Assembly (NCBI GenBank): GCA_965204745.1
Contig: OZ242010.1
Coordinates: 3,552,001 to 3,616,000, forward strand
Direction of reading: 5' to 3'
DNA length: 64,000 nucleotides
Source of the DNA: Candidatus Latescibacterota bacterium
GTDB taxonomy: Bacteria > Latescibacterota > UBA2968
In this document: in pieces, positions 30,465-51,862 of the stretch
Layout: the number at the start of each line of letters is the position of its first letter
Numbering within the stretch: position 1 is the first letter of the stretch
The notes under the pieces: model-generated
The model's input: the letters and a program-made list of their open reading frames with translations, nothing else
Told to the model about the DNA's origin: nothing
Databases searched by the model: none
Program-made: the position numbers and the translations under genes

Positions 30465-32012
30465 TCACGCAGGTGCCACCTCGAAAGCCACCAAGTTGCG
30501 GGTCTTTTTGCTGAACGTCACCGCGATGAGATGAATCGACAGGCCAGCGTCTCGATACTTATCCGCGTAGTGCCGCGCTCGCAGTTGCGTCAGGCCGATG
30601 CCCTCGGAGTCCGATTCGACCACTTTGAACTCGAACAAGTAGATGTTGGCGTTGAAACGCACCGCCATGTCCAAACGCCCGTGGCTGCTGCTGTCCTCTA
30701 CGGCGATGTCTAGCCCTAACGACGCAAAGTAGGAGTAGAACACACTGGCGTAGTAGCCTTCGTAGTCGGCGATGTCGTTTTTCGTGTGCCACTGGTAGGG
30801 GATGCTGGCGAAGAATGCCTTGAACAAACTTTCCAGCCCAACGAAGTCAGCGGTCAACAGCAAGTCGTACAGCCGGGCACTGTGCTCTGCCTGCCGCGCT
30901 GGGCTTTCCGTCAAGTGATTCAGCAAGCTCTCGTTCAGGCTCTGGCGCACTTCTTGGTTCGGGTAGCCCAACCGGTAGTAGGTCCTGCTACCGCGCGGTT
31001 CTGTCTGGTGGATGGTCAGATAGCCCGTCTGGAACAGCAGGGCTTCGGTGGCTATGTGGTCGATGTCGAAGGCCGATAGCAACTCGTCGGTGCCCAGCAT
31101 ATTGTCCAAAGCCAATGAACCGACCCCGCGTGTCATTAGCGTCTCGATCAGAAAGGTCGGCGTGGCGGTCTCGAACCAGTAGGCGCCGAACCGACGACGG
31201 CGAAAGAGCAGAAGCACATCAAAGGGATTATAGACCCGCTCGTTCCCCAGCCAGTTGTAGCCATTGTACCAGCGGCGGATTTCGTCGCGATTCAAGCCGG
31301 GAAGTTCCGGCGCAAACACCGCGTCCAGGTCCGCGTCCGTGTACCCGCACAGGGCGGAGTAGCGCGGTTCGAGGGTGATGTCGATGAGATTGTTGAGGCC
31401 AGAGAACAGGCTGACCTTGGAAAACTTGCTCACGCCGGTGAGGAACGCAAACTTGATATGCGCGTCGGCGAACTTGATGGTCGCATACAACCCGCGCAGA
31501 AAGTTGCGGTTGGCGCGGGCGATTTCCGGCTCTTCCAGCGCGTCTAAAATCGGCTTGTCGTACTCGTCGATCAGCACCGCGACGGGTCGCCCGGTCTGAC
31601 GATGCAATGCCTCTATCAGATGGGCGAAACGCCCCGGCGCCGTGGCGTATTCGGAGGTTATTTGTTCTCGACATTCAATGGCGGTCAGTTGTTCCATGAC
31701 GTTCGCCTGGAGGTGCCCCGGCACCCCATAGTCTCCGTTGCTGAAGTCGATCCGCACCACCGGATAGCGAACCGACCAATCCCAGTGGTCGTGGATGTCG
31801 AGCCCCTCAAATAGCGGCGCGTTGCCCTCGAACAATTCCTTCAGCGTGTCGAGGAACAGACTCTTGCCAAAGCGGCGCGGGCGCGACAAAAAGAAATGGC
31901 TACCCTCATCCATCAGTTGCCGCATGTAGGCGGTCTTATCGACATAGTAGCAGTTTTCCTCTCGCATCTTGCGAAAGGTCTGAATGCCAATGGGCAGTTT
32001 GCGTTTATCCAT
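30465..32012 (-). CDS. AAA-ATPase-like/PD-(D/E)XK nuclease, paralog B
   Basis: Same motifs and same 1548-bp length as paralog A. Confidence 0.92.
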   Translation of the reverse strand: MDKRKLPIGIQTFRKMREENCYYVDKTAYMRQLMDEGSHFFLSRPRRFGKSLFLDTLKELFEGNAPLFEGLDIHDHWDWSVRYPVVRIDFSNGDYGVPGHLQANVMEQLTAIECREQITSEYATAPGRFAHLIEALHRQTGRPVAVLIDEYDKPILDALEEPEIARANRNFLRGLYATIKFADAHIKFAFLTGVSKFSKVSLFSGLNNLIDITLEPRYSALCGYTDADLDAVFAPELPGLNRDEIRRWYNGYNWLGNERVYNPFDVLLLFRRRRFGAYWFETATPTFLIETLMTRGVGSLALDNMLGTDELLSAFDIDHIATEALLFQTGYLTIHQTEPRGSRTYYRLGYPNQEVRQSLNESLLNHLTESPARQAEHSARLYDLLLTADFVGLESLFKAFFASIPYQWHTKNDIADYEGYYASVFYSYFASLGLDIAVEDSSSHGRLDMAVRFNANIYLFEFKVVESDSEGIGLTQLRARHYADKYRDAGLSIHLIAVTFSKKTRNLVAFEVAPA

Positions 32013-32319
32013 CCTTTCCCCCTTCAAGAGCCGAATCTCGCGCCATCGGTCTTGGCGTGGCGGCGTTTTTCCGATTGCGCGGTTGTGTTTCCCGCTGATC
32101 CATTTCTCTGCTCATATTGCAAGCGGTTAATGTGCCCAAGCCGAAGATACCACAATATATGCGGTCATGTATTTGGAGGGTGGTCATATCTACGGCTCGG
32201 GGTTTGCGTGTTGCAACTCTCACGCAGGTGCCACCTCGAATTGCCTCTTGCCTCTTACCTCTTGCCTCTTACCTCTTGCTTCTTGCCTCTTGCCTCTCCC
32301 CTCTTGTATCTTGGAAGTA

Positions 32320-32497
32320 AGGGTTAATTAGGAGTTGCGCCCTCGTATCGAGATAAGCCATCTTGATGCCCGGCTCGGGGAAGGCCGGCCCCTCTTGAAG
32401 GCGATGACCTTGTAGGTAAGATAGGCCCCCCGACCGCCGGGTCTATGCCGAAGAGTATCTAAGCCCCTTGAGGCTGCATATACAAGACCGGTAGACT
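32320..32497 (+). ncRNA. Predicted bridge RNA of IS110 copy 1
   Basis: Target loop: GGCCCCTCT (32387-95) and AGGTAAGA (32414-21) around an AAGG/CCTT hairpin. Donor loop: AGAGTATCT (32452-60) and ATACAAG (32480-86) around an AGCC/GGCT hairpin, closed by GTCTA..CCG/CGG.TAGAC. Ends are approximate. Confidence 0.8.
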
Positions 32498-32571
32498 TGG
32501 CGTCAATGGTCGGGACGCGACCCCGAGCGCGCACCAGATCCCTTACAACCCCCTCATCACAGGAGGCCCCC

Positions 32572-33579
32572 ATGTCGAAATCTCACCCCGCTTTTGCCGG
32601 CATTGATGTCAGTGCCCGCACGTTGTCCGTTGCCCTGTCCAGACCCGGACAAGCTGTCATGCAAGCGACCTTTGCCAATGATCCCCAAGCCCATAAGCGG
32701 TTGCTGAAGTGGCTCACGAAGGGCGGGCACATGGTCTCTGTGTGCCTCGAAGCGACCGGGCTTTACAGTTTGGGGGTGGCCTTGGCCTTGCATCGGCATC
32801 GCCACACAAAGGTCATGGTCGTCAATCCCAAAGCGATGAGCAAGTACGCCCAAGCCTGCATGCAACGGGCGAAGACGGATGCGAAGGATGCGTTGTTGAT
32901 CCTCGACTATGCCGAGCGCATGCCTTTTGTGCCTTGGCAAGCGCCGAGCGAGCAACGGCTTCAACTGCAAGCCCTCACCAGACGCATTGACCAACTCAAG
33001 CAGGAGATCATCCGCGAACAGAGCCGCAACCACGCGCAGAGCTACCACATCCGCAGCACACGTCTCATCGCACGCGATATTCAGGTGAATATTCGACACT
33101 TCAAACGCCGGATTGCATACTTGGAAAGCCAAGCCCTCGATCTCGTTTTGCACGATGAGCCCCTCAAGCGTGCCTACCAACGCCTCTGCTCGACGCCTGG
33201 CATCGCGCAAACGAGTGCCTTGCGGCTCTTGGCCGAGTTGACCCTTTTGCCAGAGGAGATGCAACCGCCCCAGTGGGTCGCACATGCAGGCCTGGATCCC
33301 AAACCCAAACAATCCGGAACCGCCAATCCACAAAGACGCATCTCGAAAACCGGGAATAAGTACCTCCGCCATGCCCTCTATATGCCTGCCTGGGTGGCCA
33401 TCAGACACGAAGGCCATGTCAAAGCCTTCTATGACCAACTCATCGCCCGCGGCAAGAAACCTTTGCAGGCTATCGTTGCGGTGATGCGAAAGTTGCTCCA
33501 TTCGATCTGGGGCATGTTGCGCCATGACCAAGATTTTGAGGGCGAAAAATTCTATCGAATCACCCCGAAAACCCCTTGA
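32572..33579 (+). CDS. IS110 family DEDD recombinase/transposase (335 aa)
   Basis: GIDVS, LEATG and KTDAKDA (D-E-D-D) motifs; C-terminal AGL.P...QSG serine motif and GNKYLRHALY. AGGAGG RBS. Confidence 0.95.
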   Translation: MSKSHPAFAGIDVSARTLSVALSRPGQAVMQATFANDPQAHKRLLKWLTKGGHMVSVCLEATGLYSLGVALALHRHRHTKVMVVNPKAMSKYAQACMQRAKTDAKDALLILDYAERMPFVPWQAPSEQRLQLQALTRRIDQLKQEIIREQSRNHAQSYHIRSTRLIARDIQVNIRHFKRRIAYLESQALDLVLHDEPLKRAYQRLCSTPGIAQTSALRLLAELTLLPEEMQPPQWVAHAGLDPKPKQSGTANPQRRISKTGNKYLRHALYMPAWVAIRHEGHVKAFYDQLIARGKKPLQAIVAVMRKLLHSIWGMLRHDQDFEGEKFYRITPKTP

Positions 33580-33685
33580 CCTTTTAAGAGAGTATCTTGC
33601 CTCTTACCTCTTACCGCTGTGTTGCAACTCTCACGCAGATGCCACCTCGAATTGCCTCTTGCCTCTCCCCGCTGTATTGCAACTC

Positions 33686-35233
33686 TCACGCAGATGCCAC
33701 CTCGAAAGCCACCAAGTTGCGGGTCTTTTTGCTGAATGTCACCGCGATGAGATGAATCGGCAGGCCAGCGTCTCGATACTTGTCCGCGTAGTGCCGCGCT
33801 CGCAGTTGCGACAGGCCGATGCCCTCGGAGTCCGATTCGACCACTTTGAACTCGAACAAGTAGATGTTGTCGTTGAAACGCACCGCCATGTCCAAACGCC
33901 CGTGGCTGCTGCTGTCCTCTACGGTGATGTCTAGCCCCAGCGACGCAAAGTAGGAGTAGAACACACTGGCGTAGTAGCCTTCGTAGTCGGCGATATCGTT
34001 TTTCGTGTGCCACTGGTAGGGGATGCTGGCGAAGAATGCCTTGAACAGCGTCTCGAGGCCAGAAAAATCGTTGATGGACAGCAGTTTGTATAACTGGACG
34101 ATGTGCGCGGTCTGGGTGGACGCATTGTGTAGCAGGTGACGCAACAGGCTTTGGTTCAGGCTTTGGCGCACCTCTTGGTTGGGATACCCCAGTTGATAGA
34201 GGGGTTGCCCGACTAGGTCCTCCTCGTCCTGTATGGTCAGATAGCCGGTCTGAAACAACAGGGCTTCGGTAGCCATGTGGTCGATGTCAAAGGCCGACAG
34301 CAACTCGTCGGTGCCGATCATGCGCTCCAGATCAAAGGAACTGACTCTGCGTGCCATTAGGGTCTCGATGAGAAAGGTCGGCGTGGCGGTCTCGAACCAG
34401 TAGGCGCCGAACCGGCGGCGGCGAAAGAGCAACAACACATCAAAGGGGTTATAGACCCGCTCGTTCCCCAGCCAGTTGTAGCCATTGTACCAGCGGCGGA
34501 TTTCGTCGCGATCCAAGCCGGGAAGTTCCGGCGCAAACACCGCGTCCAGATCCGCGTCCGTGTACCCGCACAGTGCGGAGTAGCGCGGTTCGAGGGTGAT
34601 GTCGATGAGATTGTTGAGCCCAGAGAACAGGCTGACCTTGGAAAACTTGCTCACGCCGGTGAGGAACGCAAACTTGATATGTGCGTCGTTATCCTTGATC
34701 GTGGCGTATAGGCCGCGCAGAAAGTCGCGGTTGGCATGGGCGATTTCCGGCTCCTCAAGCGCGTCCAAAATCGGCTTGTCGTACTCGTCGATCAACACCA
34801 CAACCCGCTGTCCCGCACGCTCGTGCAATGCCTCGATCAGAAAGGCAAAACGCTCGGGGACTGTCGCGTACTCGGACTTCATGCCCGCCCGACGTTCCAC
34901 CGCGTCTAATTGTGCCATCAGATTCGCTTGTAGATAGCCCGGCTCTTTGAAGTTGCCGCTACCAAAACTCAGGCGCACCACCGGATAGCGAATCGACCAA
35001 TCCCAGTGGTCGTGGATGTCGAGCCCCTCAAACAGCGGCGCGTTGCCCTCGAACAATTCCTTCAGCGTGTCGAGAAACAGACTCTTGCCAAAGCGGCGCG
35101 GGCGCGAGAGGAAGTAGAGCTTGCCTTCATCGACCAACCGCTGTATGTAGGCGGTCTTATCGACATAGTAATGGTTCTGCTCGCGAATCTCGCGGAAGGT
35201 CTGAATGCCAATGGGCAGTTTGCGCTTATCCAT
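33686..35233 (-). CDS. AAA-ATPase-like/PD-(D/E)XK nuclease, paralog C
   Basis: Same motifs and same 1548-bp length as paralogs A and B. Confidence 0.92.
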   Translation of the reverse strand: MDKRKLPIGIQTFREIREQNHYYVDKTAYIQRLVDEGKLYFLSRPRRFGKSLFLDTLKELFEGNAPLFEGLDIHDHWDWSIRYPVVRLSFGSGNFKEPGYLQANLMAQLDAVERRAGMKSEYATVPERFAFLIEALHERAGQRVVVLIDEYDKPILDALEEPEIAHANRDFLRGLYATIKDNDAHIKFAFLTGVSKFSKVSLFSGLNNLIDITLEPRYSALCGYTDADLDAVFAPELPGLDRDEIRRWYNGYNWLGNERVYNPFDVLLLFRRRRFGAYWFETATPTFLIETLMARRVSSFDLERMIGTDELLSAFDIDHMATEALLFQTGYLTIQDEEDLVGQPLYQLGYPNQEVRQSLNQSLLRHLLHNASTQTAHIVQLYKLLSINDFSGLETLFKAFFASIPYQWHTKNDIADYEGYYASVFYSYFASLGLDITVEDSSSHGRLDMAVRFNDNIYLFEFKVVESDSEGIGLSQLRARHYADKYRDAGLPIHLIAVTFSKKTRNLVAFEVASA

Positions 35234-35435
35234 CCTTTCCTCCTTCAAGAGCCGAATCCCGCGCCAATCGGTCTTGGCGTGGCGGCGTTTTTTTCATTCT
35301 GCGTTTGCAAACAATATCGCCCCAACTATTGCTATGTTACTATATCGCGTCTGTTCTGACAAGGAGTAAGTCAGGGGTCAGCACATCCGCGCCAGAAAAA
35401 CCCCTCGCGATTTATCCTCTCATCGCAACGCTTAC

Positions 35436-43543: not shown

Positions 43544-43615
43544 GAGGCAAGGCGTAAGAGGTAAGACGCAAGAGGGGAGAGGGGAGACGCAAGAGGCAAG
43601 ATACTCTCTTAAAGG

Positions 43616-44623
43616 TCAAGGGGATTGCGGGGCGATTCGATAGAATTTCTCGCCCTCAAAATCTTGGTCATGCCGCAACATGCCCCAGATTGAATGGAGC
43701 AACTTTCGCATCACCGCAACGATAGCCTGCAAAGGTTTCTTGCCGCGGGCAATGAGTTGGTCATAGAAGGCTTTGACATGGACTTCGTGTCTGATGGCCA
43801 CCCAGGCAGGCATATAGAGGGCATGGCGGAGGTACTTATTCCCGGTTTTCGAGATGCGTCTTTGTGGGTTGGCGGTTCCGGATTGTTTGGGTTTGGGATC
43901 CAGGCCTGCATGTGCGACCCACTGGGGCGGTTGCATCTCCTCAGGCAAAAGGGTCAACTCGGCCAAGAGCCGCAAGGCGCTCGTTTGTGCGATGCCAGGC
44001 GTCGAGCAGAGGCGTTGGTAGGCGCGCTTGAGGGTCTCATCGTGCAAAACGAGATCGAGGGCTTGGTCTTCCAAGTATGCAATCCGGCGTTTGAGGTGTC
44101 GAATATTCACCTGAATATCGCGTGCGATGCGCCGTGTGCTCAGGATGTGGTAGCTTTGCGCGTGGTTGCGGCTCTGTTCACTGATGATCACCTGCTTGAG
44201 TTGGTCAATGCGTCTGGTGAGGGCTTGCAGTTGAAGCCGTTGCTCACTCGGCGCTTGCCAAGGCACAAACGGCATGCGCTCGGCATAATCCATGATCAAC
44301 AACGCATCCTTCGCATCCGTCTTGGCTCGTTGCATGCGGGCTTGACCGTACTTGCTCATCGCTTTGGGATTGACGACCATGACCTTTGTGTGGCGATGCC
44401 GATGCAAGGCCAAGGCCACCCCCAAGCTGTAAAGCCCGGTCGCTTCGAGGCACACAGAGACCATGTGCCCGCCCTTGGTGAGCCACTTCAGCAACCGCTT
44501 ATGGGCTTGGGGATCATTGGCAAAGGTCGCTTGCATGACAGCTTGTCCGGGTCTGGACAGGGCAACAGACAACGTGCGGGCACTGACATCAATGCCGGCG
44601 AAAGCGGGTTGAGATTTCGACAT
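43616..44623 (-). CDS. IS110 family recombinase/transposase
   Basis: 335 aa with DEDD and QSG motifs; close variant of copy 1. Confidence 0.95.
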   Translation of the reverse strand: MSKSQPAFAGIDVSARTLSVALSRPGQAVMQATFANDPQAHKRLLKWLTKGGHMVSVCLEATGLYSLGVALALHRHRHTKVMVVNPKAMSKYGQARMQRAKTDAKDALLIMDYAERMPFVPWQAPSEQRLQLQALTRRIDQLKQVIISEQSRNHAQSYHILSTRRIARDIQVNIRHLKRRIAYLEDQALDLVLHDETLKRAYQRLCSTPGIAQTSALRLLAELTLLPEEMQPPQWVAHAGLDPKPKQSGTANPQRRISKTGNKYLRHALYMPAWVAIRHEVHVKAFYDQLIARGKKPLQAIVAVMRKLLHSIWGMLRHDQDFEGEKFYRIAPQSP

Positions 44624-44695
44624 GGGGGCCTCCTGTGATGAGGGGTTGTAAGGGGTCTGGTGTGCGCTCGAGTTCGATCCCGACCATTGACGCCA

Positions 44696-44873
44696 AGTCT
44701 ACCGGTCTTGTATATGCAGCCTCAAGGGACTTAGATACTCTTCGGCATAGACCCGGCGGTCGGGGGGCCTATCTTACCTACAAGGTCATCGCCTTCAAGA
44801 GGGGCCGGCCTTCCCCGAGCCGGGCATCAAGATGGCTTATCTCGATACGAGGGCGCAACTCCTAATTAACCCT
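44696..44873 (-). ncRNA. Predicted bridge RNA of IS110 copy 2
   Basis: Same four guide segments as copy 1; the left target guide is at 44798-44806. Confidence 0.8.
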
Positions 44874-45112
44874 TACTTCCAAGATACAAGAGGGGAGACG
44901 CAAGAGGGGAGAGGGGTGGCCTTCTCACGTCTTGCCTCTCACCTCTCACTTTTTTGGGGTGGCCTTCTCACGTCTTGCCTCTCACCTCTCACCTTTTTGG
45001 GCGATGTCCCCGTGCTCGCCTGAAGACGCGAAAAGGCGAAAGGCAACTGCTGATAAACACAGATGAACGCGAATGGCGAGGTATCCGTTCAACCACTTAT
45101 TTGAGGTATATT

Positions 45113-50297: not shown

Positions 50298-50387
50298 GTC
50301 GTTCATAAGAGGTGAGAGGTGAGAGGCGAGAGGCAAGAGGCGAGAGGGGAGAGGGGAGAGGGAAGAGGCAAGATACTCTCTTAAAGG

Positions 50388-51395
50388 TCAAGGGGATTGC
50401 GGGGCGATTCGATAGAATTTCTCGCCCTCAAAATCTTGGTCATGCCGCAACATGCCCCAGATTGAATGGAGCAACTTTCGCATCACCGCAACGATAGCCT
50501 GCAAAGGTTTCTTGCCGCGGGCAATGAGTTGGTCATAGAAGGCTTTGACATGGACTTCGTGTCTGATGGCCACCCAGGCAGGCATATAGAGGGCATGGCG
50601 GAGGTACTTATTCCCGGTTTTCGAGATGCGTCTTTGTGGGTTGGCGGTTCCGGATTGTTTGGGTTTGGGATCCAGGCCTGCATGTGCGACCCACTGGGGC
50701 GGTTGCATCTCCTCAGGCAAAAGGGTCAACTCGGCCAAGAGCCGCAAGGCGCTCGTTTGTGCGATGCCAGGCGTCGAGCAGAGGCGTTGGTAGGCGCGCT
50801 TGAGGGTCTCATCGTGCAAAACGAGATCGAGGGCTTGGTCTTCCAAGTATGCAATCCGGCGTTTGAGGTGTCGAATATTCACCTGAATATCGCGTGCGAT
50901 GCGCCGTGTGCTCAGGATGTGGTAGCTTTGCGCGTGGTTGCGGCTCTGTTCACTGATGATCACCTGCTTGAGTTGGTCAATGCGTCTGGTGAGGGCTTGC
51001 AGTTGAAGCCGTTGCTCACTCGGCGCTTGCCAAGGCACAAACGGCATGCGCTCGGCATAATCCATGATCAACAACGCATCCTTCGCATCCGTCTTGGCTC
51101 GTTGCATGCGGGCTTGACCGTACTTGCTCATCGCTTTGGGATTGACGACCATGACCTTTGTGTGGCGATGCCGATGCAAGGCCAAGGCCACCCCCAAGCT
51201 GTAAAGCCCGGTCGCTTCGAGGCACACAGAGACCATGTGCCCGCCCTTGGTGAGCCACTTCAGCAACCGCTTATGGGCTTGGGGATCATTGGCAAAGGTC
51301 GCTTGCATGACAGCTTGTCCGGGTCTGGACAGGGCAACAGACAACGTGCGGGCACTGACATCAATGCCGGCGAAAGCGGGTTGAGATTTCGACAT
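50388..51395 (-). CDS. IS110 family recombinase/transposase
   Basis: Protein identical to that of copy 2. Confidence 0.95.
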   Translation of the reverse strand: MSKSQPAFAGIDVSARTLSVALSRPGQAVMQATFANDPQAHKRLLKWLTKGGHMVSVCLEATGLYSLGVALALHRHRHTKVMVVNPKAMSKYGQARMQRAKTDAKDALLIMDYAERMPFVPWQAPSEQRLQLQALTRRIDQLKQVIISEQSRNHAQSYHILSTRRIARDIQVNIRHLKRRIAYLEDQALDLVLHDETLKRAYQRLCSTPGIAQTSALRLLAELTLLPEEMQPPQWVAHAGLDPKPKQSGTANPQRRISKTGNKYLRHALYMPAWVAIRHEVHVKAFYDQLIARGKKPLQAIVAVMRKLLHSIWGMLRHDQDFEGEKFYRIAPQSP

Positions 51396-51467
51396 GGGGG
51401 CCTCCTGTGATGAGGGGTTGTAAGGGGTCTGGTGTGCGCTCGAGTTCGATCCCGACCATTGACGCCA

Positions 51468-51645
51468 AGTCTACCGGTCTTGTATATGCAGCCTCAAGGG
51501 ACTTAGATACTCTTCGGCATAGACCCGGCGGTCGGGGGGCCTATCTTACCTACAAGGTCATCGCCTTCAAGAGGGGCCGGCCTTCCCCGAGCCGGGCATC
51601 AAGATGGCTTATCTCGATACGAGGGCGCAACTCCTAATTAACCCT
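51468..51645 (-). ncRNA. Predicted bridge RNA of IS110 copy 3
   Basis: Same sequence as the copy 2 left end. Confidence 0.8.
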
Positions 51646-51660
51646 TACTTCCAAGATACA

Positions 51661-51862
51661 AGAGGGGAGAGGGAAGAGGGGAGAGGGAAGAGGGGAGAGG
51701 GAAGAGGGGAGAGGCGAGAGGTGAGACAGTCCCGCCGCCATTAACCGTAGGGATAGGCCCCTGTGTTCGCCCGAAGATACAAGAGGGAAGACGCAAGACG
51801 CAAGACGCAAGACGCAAGACGCAAGACGCAAGACGGGAGAGGGGTGGCCTTCTCACGTCTTG
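51661..51862. repeat. Heptamer arrays (AGAGGGG/AGAGGGA; AAGACGC x6) with a REP-like palindrome
   Basis: Directly visible 7-nt periodicity; GTAGGGATAGGCCCCTGTG at 51747. Confidence 0.9.

Follow-up and report, generated by a model that had tools for sequence, protein, structure and literature searches.

The window analysed here, a 64,000-nucleotide stretch of the genome of a Candidatus Latescibacterota bacterium (contig OZ242010.1, positions 3,552,001 to 3,616,000), carries three copies of an insertion sequence (IS) of the IS110 group, each lying in a tandem array of pyrimidine-rich heptamers. Removal of the copies in silico rebuilds the same site, CTCCCCT-CT-TGCCTCT, all three times, as an earlier note on this DNA had claimed, and Tandem Repeats Finder (TRF) places the three sites within heptamer arrays, as that note had also held, of 11.3, 10.7 and 18.4 units for copies 1, 2 and 3, respectively. 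Two features make the element notable: its predicted guide aims at one junction in these repeats, and where the guides of sister copies are altered, the junctions that they occupy are altered correspondingly. Coordinates are window positions unless marked G000 C1 or genome, which refer to the single 5.48-Mb contig (56.5% GC) of the window's genome.

The element and its recombinase

Copy 1 and its surroundings comprise the following features, listed with the two further copies in the window.

32240..32302, + strand: heptamer array on the left flank of the insertion (among its units CTTGCCT, CTTACCT and CTCCCCT), resuming at 33598-33612
32303..32304, + strand: left CT core, the junction of the left target arm and the IS left end (read from the sequence)
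32305..33595, + strand: IS110-group IS body, 1291 bp, without inverted terminal repeats (delimited by blastn copies)
32572..33579, + strand: recombinase gene, 335 amino acids, DEDD (RuvC-like) and Tnp domains (Pfam, NCBIfam and PDB matches)
33596..33597, + strand: right CT core (read from the sequence and the flanks of copies)
about 43600-44888, - strand: second copy, of a subfamily with 96% identity, with the same guides and the same target 16-mer
about 50372-51660, - strand: third copy, of the same 96% subfamily, with the same guides and the same target 16-mer

The IS has a non-coding left end of 267 nt and a right end of 16 nt, with one gene only between them, and there is no inverted repeat between the termini, TGTAT.. 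and ..GAGTAT. The reconstructed empty site of copy 1 is a period-7 array (the 11.3 copies given above) that extends from -63 to +15 relative to the junction.

The recombinase matches the Pfam families PF01548 (DEDD_Tnp_IS110; E 1.2e-24) and PF02371 (Transposase_20; E 4.8e-20) and scores 213.8 bits, against a cutoff of 140, with the NCBIfam equivalog NF033542, 'IS110 family RNA-guided transposase'. Its PDB matches are end-to-end (residues 7-326), to ISCro4 with an E value of 7.6e-40 and to IS621 with one of 5.8e-36, and residues D12, E60, D103, D106 and S258 align opposite the five catalytic residues of IS621. The strength of the IS621 match indicates that the protein is not a close orthologue. 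The 'distant lineage' of the earlier note was an overstatement: among IS110-group proteins this one is mainstream, and databases contain 3553 relatives. On every testable sequence-level criterion the element agrees with the IS110 group, that is, with the bridge-RNA-guided recombinases, and the proposal that it has the architecture of IS621 is supported by the domains, the NF033542 assignment, the structure matches, and the loop layout and strand pattern described below.

A predicted bridge RNA with target and donor guides

Consensus folding with RNAalifold of 19 distinct left ends, taken from the subfamilies of this genome and from two related genomes, predicts two stem-loops, each with a large internal loop and an inner hairpin, and the modules folded alone agree with this prediction. 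The elements of the predicted RNA, all in the left end of copy 1, are as follows.

32376..32431, + strand: target-binding stem-loop, closing stem GGGG..GGCC/GGCC..CCCC, inner hairpin AAGG/CCTT (RNAalifold consensus, single fold)
32387-32397, + strand: 5′ side of the target loop, GGCCCCTCTTG
32389..32397, + strand: left target guide CCCCTCTTG, equal to target positions 3-11 in the same sense, which would pair with the bottom strand
32412-32423, + strand: 3′ side of the target loop, GTAGGTAAGATA
32414..32420, + strand: right target guide AGGUAAG, which would pair with CT-TACCT of the top strand and, through a U:G pair, with CT-TGCCT
32421..32422, + strand: AU, which could pair with donor positions 6-7 (AT) and is a candidate for the target loop's handshake guide, as suggested by comparing the sequence with the description in PMC11208158
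32446..32493, + strand: donor-binding stem-loop, closing stem TGCCG/CGGTA, inner hairpin AGCC/GGCT
32452..32460, + strand: left donor guide AGAGUAUCU (DNA AGAGTATCT), which repeats, in the same sense, the final 7 nt of the right end together with the core
32480..32486, + strand: right donor guide AUACAAG, which would pair with CT-TGTAT, the core with the 5 nt that open the left end

The claim that the left end holds two internal loops closed by stems is therefore borne out by the predicted folds, both of the consensus and of the separate modules, and the donor loop is closed in them by TGCCG/CGGTA and not by the GGTCT/AGACC that inspection by eye might suggest. The 72-nt stretch that holds the donor stem-loop (32436-32507) has a predicted energy of -26.4 kcal/mol, with a z score of -2.9 relative to shuffles, and one pair of the donor stem (alignment columns 133/199) changes from GC to AU in 7 of the 19 sequences. 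A minimum free energy (MFE) fold of the whole left end was discarded in favour of the modular and alignment folds, its loops being mispaired and its energy at the level of shuffles.

On its 5′ side, the target loop carries CCCCT-CT-TG in target sense. A match of 7 of 9 nt to the left target arm and core had been reported for this loop; the match is there, but the figure was too low, since CCCCTCTTG taken in register gives 9/9. The matches of the donor loop to the predicted circle junction, AGAGTAT-CT-TGTAT, hold as originally described, at 32452-32460 and 32480-32486. Of the 19 aligned left ends, 18 have an unchanged left donor guide, and the right donor guide appears in relatives as AUAGACAAG, which fits the discontiguous pairing of IS621, in which 9 RNA bases face 7 donor bases. 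In a control with 1000 dinucleotide shuffles of the IS body, 2 reached both of the donor-arm match lengths. Taken alone, the raw guide matches are only modestly beyond chance, and the weight of the case rests on specificity across the genome and on the covariation of guides with targets.

Site choice across the genome

The genome holds 52 full-length copies with 88-100% identity and about 20 fragments (blastn), which together make up about 1.2% of its length. Relative to the window copy, 37 copies are at least 99.8% identical, 8 are at 96.2% and 5 at 88-89%. CT is present at both junctions in 52/52. A profile search with PF01548 gave 57 matches in the genome, all of them belonging to this element, and no other IS110 lineage. 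The recombinase frame of 335 amino acids is kept in 45/52 copies and is broken (262 amino acids) in one; the remaining 6/52 were left unscored by the same script and have open frames in a separate check. Because the distal flanks (200-1200 nt away) are unrelated between loci, apart from a tandem pair and the window copy with paralogous flanking genes, the copies represent separate insertions.

Heptamer-array targeting holds throughout the genome, with 47/52 sites lying in or at the edge of period-7/14 arrays of 2-34 units (TRF, with the IS removed in silico). Pyrimidine-type heptamer runs of at least 3 units number 689 in the genome and total 26.7 kb. Occupied and empty sites were counted as exact 12-mer junctions for the 45 copies that carry the guides of the window copies.

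CCCCT-CT-TACCT: 20 occupied, 5 empty
CCCCT-CT-TGCCT: 16 occupied, 65 empty
TACCT-CT-TACCT: 4 occupied, 83 empty
TGCCT-CT-TGCCT (the commonest array junction): 0 occupied, 241 empty
CCCCT-CT-CCCCT: 0 occupied, 45 empty
TGCCT-CT-TACCT: 0 occupied, 48 empty

The 5 further copies, outside these six junctions, occupy sites 1-3 positions off the main ones. These occupancies indicate that both arms of the target are read. With respect to the right arm, occupancy reaches 80% at TACCT sites, compared with 20% at TGCCT sites (A versus G at position 11, Fisher p 7e-8), so that the fully complementary right arm is far nearer to saturation (20/25) than its wobble variant (16/81). The suggestion that a U:G wobble would let both array variants be accepted is borne out insofar as TGCCT and TACCT are both used, but they are used unequally. 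All 10 non-core positions can pair with the guides at 37/45 sites. Insertion at unrelated sequences, which had been named as an observation that would speak against RNA guidance, was not encountered: 36/45 copies have the 12-mer exactly, and the sites of the remaining 9 depart from it at 1-3 of the 10 non-core positions.

Guides and targets change together

Copies of this genome with other target guides occupy other junctions. The guide class CGCCT / AAGUAAG (4 copies) is found at sites CGCCT-CT-TACTT, and the single copy with TCCCT..C / AGGUGAG is found at TCCCT-CT-CACCT, with three matching changes. One copy of the class TGCCT / AAGUAAG lies at TACCT-CT-TACTT, a site that entails one G:T pair.

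The closest relatives are on two closed chromosomes of Latescibacterota metagenome-assembled genomes (MAGs), identified through loci L007 and L001. In the L007 genome (18 loci, 76-78% amino acid identity), the guides are CTCGCCTCT / GGGAG and the sites are heptamer-array junctions, CTCGCCT-CT-CCCGT. In the L001 genome (7 loci, 80-84% amino acid identity), the guides are TCCYCCT / AGAAAAG and the sites, ..CC-CT-TTTCT, are not in heptamer arrays. When guides were scored against targets in a matrix, the cognate pair was the column maximum in 5/5 lineage columns, with one tie, and the mean number of paired positions out of 10 was 9.1 for cognate (77 comparisons) and 6.9 for non-cognate combinations (693), counts that are non-independent, since related copies are included. 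Two distant relatives, L026 (a Gemmatimonadota contig, 48% amino acid identity) and L033 (a metagenome contig, 46%), likewise have guides that match their own, unrelated flanks. A metagenome scan yielded only 2 distant loci.

The donor guides remain constant throughout the lineages compared while the target guides vary. Thus, the earlier picture of a conserved donor and a reprogrammed target loop is sound as an observation, although the pattern itself had already been reported across orthologues (Durrant et al.).

A promoter-like sequence at the predicted circle junction

Joining of the right and left ends in silico brings together two hexamers that could form a promoter.

32307..32312, + strand: TATCTT, -10-like hexamer of the predicted circle-junction promoter (in-silico end joining)
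33576..33581, + strand: TTGACC, right-end hexamer that resembles a -35 element and overlaps the stop codon

The joined ends of copy 1 read TTGACC-N18-TATCTT, a candidate promoter with 9/12 matches; in copy 2, of the 96% subfamily, the spacer is N17. No promoter-like site was found upstream of the integrated left end of copy 1. A hybrid promoter, in which array units would supply the -35 element to integrated copies, was considered and rejected: TTGCCT occurs at N18 in only 4/52 copies, and copy 1 showed no promoter.

Among the sequencing runs listed, none is recorded as RNA. Assembled contigs of four runs were aligned to positions 31900-34000, and each of the four contains the IS. Three of the runs show joints, four in total, that jump over about 1325-1383 nt; these fall in repeated flanking motifs, have short sides or unknown intervening sequence and are not readable as empty sites.

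Small repeats that share the right-donor half-site

The 10-mer CTTGTATCTT joins the core to the 8 nt that open the left end. The genome has 212 occurrences of it where 5.7 would be expected, and about 150 of these lie outside IS copies; one example in the window, at 51768-51777 (-), lies just upstream of the array of copy 3. The two related genomes contain 242 and 294 occurrences, compared with 3 each for the reversed control. Conservation at these sites begins sharply at CT and in at least 96 cases continues into a short GC-rich hairpin. A right module ending in ..CCCAT-CT (..GGCTAAAATCCCAT-CT) is found 133 times in the genome, and 31 mini-elements of 73-280 nt have both ends, with CT at each. 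They are composed of the left half-site, the hairpin, at least one copy of a ~40-nt unit together with a 9-nt tandem repeat (TTTTGTGCC), and the right module; G000 C1:296649-296800 is an example. The 11 nt that open the left end recur in the same place in a 46%-identical relative from another setting, and hence the motif looks IS-derived rather than host-derived. The excess of right-donor half-sites outside the IS is not obviously covered by current descriptions of these elements.

Two explanations of these repeats were tried and set aside. That CTTGTATCTT might be the terminal unit of pyrimidine arrays fails at 110/158 sites, which have no in-phase heptamer unit directly upstream. Mobilisation of the mini-elements by the present guides does not fit their heterogeneous flanks, nor the lack of any enrichment of the left-donor half-site outside IS copies.

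Proposed mechanism and alternatives

We propose that this is an active or recently active IS110-group element that very probably works like IS621, as judged from its sequence. The element would excise as a circle with its right end joined to its left end at the CT core, and the circle junction would unite the -35 (TTGACC, right end) and -10 (TATCTT, left end) hexamers, from which a predicted bridge RNA of about 190-200 nt would be transcribed from the left end. The donor loop would pair with the circle junction AGAGTAT-CT-TGTAT, and the target loop with a 14-nt target that consists of two consecutive heptamer units, CTCCCCT and then CTTRCCT, the 5′ guide binding the bottom strand at positions 3-11 and the 3′ guide the top strand at positions 8-14. 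An A at target position 11 would pair as U:A against the 3′ guide and as G:T against the 5′ guide; with a G there, the pairs would be U:G and G:C. Either base would always give one Watson-Crick pair and one wobble, and the two guides would compensate for each other. The DEDD/Ser recombinase would then exchange strands at the CT core. We infer the expression of the RNA, the formation of the circle and catalysis by the protein from these features.

Several observations weigh against this proposal. The MFE of the whole left end is no better than that of shuffles (z -0.68), the target-loop module alone has a z of -1.1, and structural covariation is thin, with double changes at 2/46 pairs, because the sequences are close. 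Rfam gave no match at gathering scores in the whole window, and a search of the left end with E up to 10 gave chance-level E values of about 1-7, Rfam 15 not having been established to contain a bridge-RNA model. The left donor guide changes to AGCGTATCT in one single-copy variant, without compensation. With respect to the targets, 8/45 sites carry 1-3 mismatches to the guides, and in the L007 genome a short right guide limits pairing to 6-8 of the 10 scored positions at its 18 loci. The second TGCCT / AAGUAAG copy (genome 602782) is the one clear exception: its site fits the TCCCT..C / AGGUGAG class and has 3 mismatches to the copy's own guides, an arrangement that would be compatible with the action in trans of another copy's RNA, although this is conjecture. 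Both target-arm match lengths are reached by 21/1000 dinucleotide shuffles of the IS body. Finally, the circle-junction joint was not seen in the assembled contigs of the four runs, contigs being a poor test of absence.

The shuffle result for the target arms would suit a reading in which the sites are chosen by the protein, or through short homology between IS ends and arrays (the shared CTTG), and the loop matches are coincidental in a pyrimidine-rich setting. Every heptamer unit has CT, and often CTTG, and the left end itself opens with heptamer-like units, CT-TGTAT CT-TGGAA. We nevertheless regard this explanation as highly improbable: changes in the guides go with changes in the flanks across 4 or more independent lineages, affecting positions 3, 4, 10 and 13; CTTG junctions that are not matched to the guides go unused, as in the 0/241 for TGCCT-CT-TGCCT; and relatives that have the same ends with other guides occupy non-heptamer sites. 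There is a similarly slim chance that the element is a dead relic, whose copy number and shared flanks arose by duplication or recombination of repeat-rich segments and not by RNA-guided insertion. Abundant arrays and modular repeats could favour homologous recombination, and the approximately 20 fragments, the internally deleted copies and the missing circle joint would be in keeping with a relic, but the distal flanks of the 52 copies are unrelated save at the tandem pair and the one locus with paralogous genes, and the 37 copies with at least 99.8% identity and the retention of the full 335-amino-acid frame in 45/52 speak against it as well.

The small repeats raise a different alternative, in which the repeat landscape of the host is in part a product or partner of the recombinase, and the half-site repeats are non-autonomous elements or footprints. 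The excess of CTTGTATCTT in three genomes, the sharp onset of conservation at CT, the 31 CT-bounded mini-elements and the left-end start shared with the 46% relative are all consistent with it, and MITEPpu9, which resembles a MITE (a miniature inverted-repeat transposable element), provides a precedent in the IS110 family (PMC12288879). Conversely, outside the IS the left-donor half-site AGAGTATCT does not rise above background, the mini-elements have heterogeneous flanks that misfit the present guides, an in-phase heptamer unit lies directly upstream at only 48/158 sites, heptamer families unrelated to the IS ends are equally abundant, and single-unit CTTGTAT 'footprints' in arrays number only about 5. 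We consider this alternative unlikely, and equally so its extended form, according to which the recombinase helped to build the intergenic repeats, the hairpin repeats are non-autonomous partners or products that use a half-matched donor, and guides and arrays co-diversify. The reading that we favour remains insertion guided by a bridge RNA after the manner of IS621.

Relation to known systems

Mechanism, repeat preference and natural concordance of guides and targets are already in print for this group, and NCBIfam already names the family an RNA-guided transposase. In published descriptions of IS621, each loop's 5′ side pairs with 8-9 nt of the bottom strand and the 3′ side with 4-7 nt of the top strand, with the core included in all four pairings (PMC11208160), and handshake guides, a G:T pair at position 11 and a split junction promoter are described (PMC11208158). 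The present element shares with IS621 and ISCro4 a two-domain recombinase with aligned catalytic residues, a CT core, a left-end RNA with target and donor loops and the pairing of its 5′ side with the bottom strand and of its 3′ side with the top strand (both predicted here), and a preference for repeated host sequences. With IS621 it further shares the G:T pair at position 11, the division of -35 and -10 over the circle junction (a motif match here), and a donor 14-mer that is one base apart from that of an IS621 donor oligonucleotide containing ACAGTATCTTGTAT (PMC13396178), which agrees with what the earlier note had said of the IS621 donor. It differs from both in phylum, its nearest relatives being in Latescibacterota MAGs; in its target, which is the junction of two heptamer-array units and not a repetitive extragenic palindromic (REP) element; and in the presence of 52 copies with several guide variants in one genome. 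Its right target guide is 7 nt long, compared with a natural 4 nt in IS621.

Targeting of repeats is known from IS621 and ISPpu9, both of which use REP sequences (PMC12288879 for ISPpu9). Like the present element, ISPpu9 and ISPpu10 of Pseudomonas putida are IS110-family elements described as occupying multiple identical copies of an intergenic repeat (REP or other); ISPpu9 is associated with the MITE-like partner MITEPpu9, and a stem-loop beside the target adds specificity for ISPpu10. In contrast, the repeat used here is a short tandem array instead of a dispersed palindrome, and the small repeats of this genome share only the right-donor side with the IS. A conserved donor loop and a variable target loop across IS110 orthologues, with covariation of guide and target, were reported by Durrant et al. 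in 2024 (5,511 target-RNA pairs). While that set spans thousands of distant orthologues, the covariation described here is among subfamilies in one genome and its sister genomes. No description of an IS110 element aimed at heptamer, tandem-repeat or microsatellite targets was found in the full-text collection searched, supplementary tables being outside the scope of the search, and this target class, short tandem heptamer arrays, appears to be undescribed.

The element involves no new mechanism and instead offers a clean natural example of bridge-RNA retargeting within one genome, in which 52 copies with at least 3 guide variants sit at matching tandem-repeat junctions and near-perfect sites are near saturation. 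The occupancy of 20/25 versus 16/81 sites provides a natural read-out of the cost of one U:G pair in the right target guide, which could inform guide design, and the element, given its 7-nt right guide and the deep conservation of its donor, is a candidate among the orthologues that could be tested.

Genomic setting and unusual copies

The neighbours of the three window copies are all Pfam-supported genes: an AAA-ATPase_like/PDDEXK_9 pair for copy 1, a D-Ala-D-Ala dipeptidase gene and purL for copy 2, and purL and recQ for copy 3. The intergenic 'safe harbour' attributed to the element therefore applies to these three copies, which do lie between supported genes, and its scope is limited to them.

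The genome is unusually rich in short tandem repeats, with 1195 period-7 and 788 period-9 arrays (TRF), and it includes heptamer families unrelated to the IS target (AACTGAC, ACCACTG and ACTACTG as rotation-normalised TRF units). Purine-rich heptamers (GTGAGAG, GCAAGAC and others) oppose pyrimidine arrays across a short GGCCACC spacer, for example at 44900-45000 (-) in the window and at genome C1:747869-748100, and many arrays are thus arms of long imperfect hairpins. The IS target is often at the start of the pyrimidine arm of such hairpins.

Some copies are rearranged. At G000 C1:1121592-1124180 (locus L032), two copies that belong to different subfamilies, with 96.2% and 99.9% identity to the query, stand head to tail with one heptamer between them, in adjacent target registers of one array. 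An internally deleted copy at G000 C1:2972661-2972850 has positions 1-183 of the left end fused to the last 7 nt of the right end, and its breakpoint falls inside the right donor guide. At G000 C1:2459527-2459570, two tandem CTTGTAT units lead into the opening bases of the left end and a further TAT-CT-TG junction, an arrangement that looks like the scar of repeated recombination at the GTAT-CT site internal to the left end.

The genes on either side of copy 1, at 30465-32027 (-) and 33686-35248 (-), are paralogues of 520 amino acids, each with AAA-ATPase_like and PDDEXK_9 domains, and a motif, ..TTGCAACTCTCACGCAG.TGCCACCTCGAA.., is repeated downstream of each of them.

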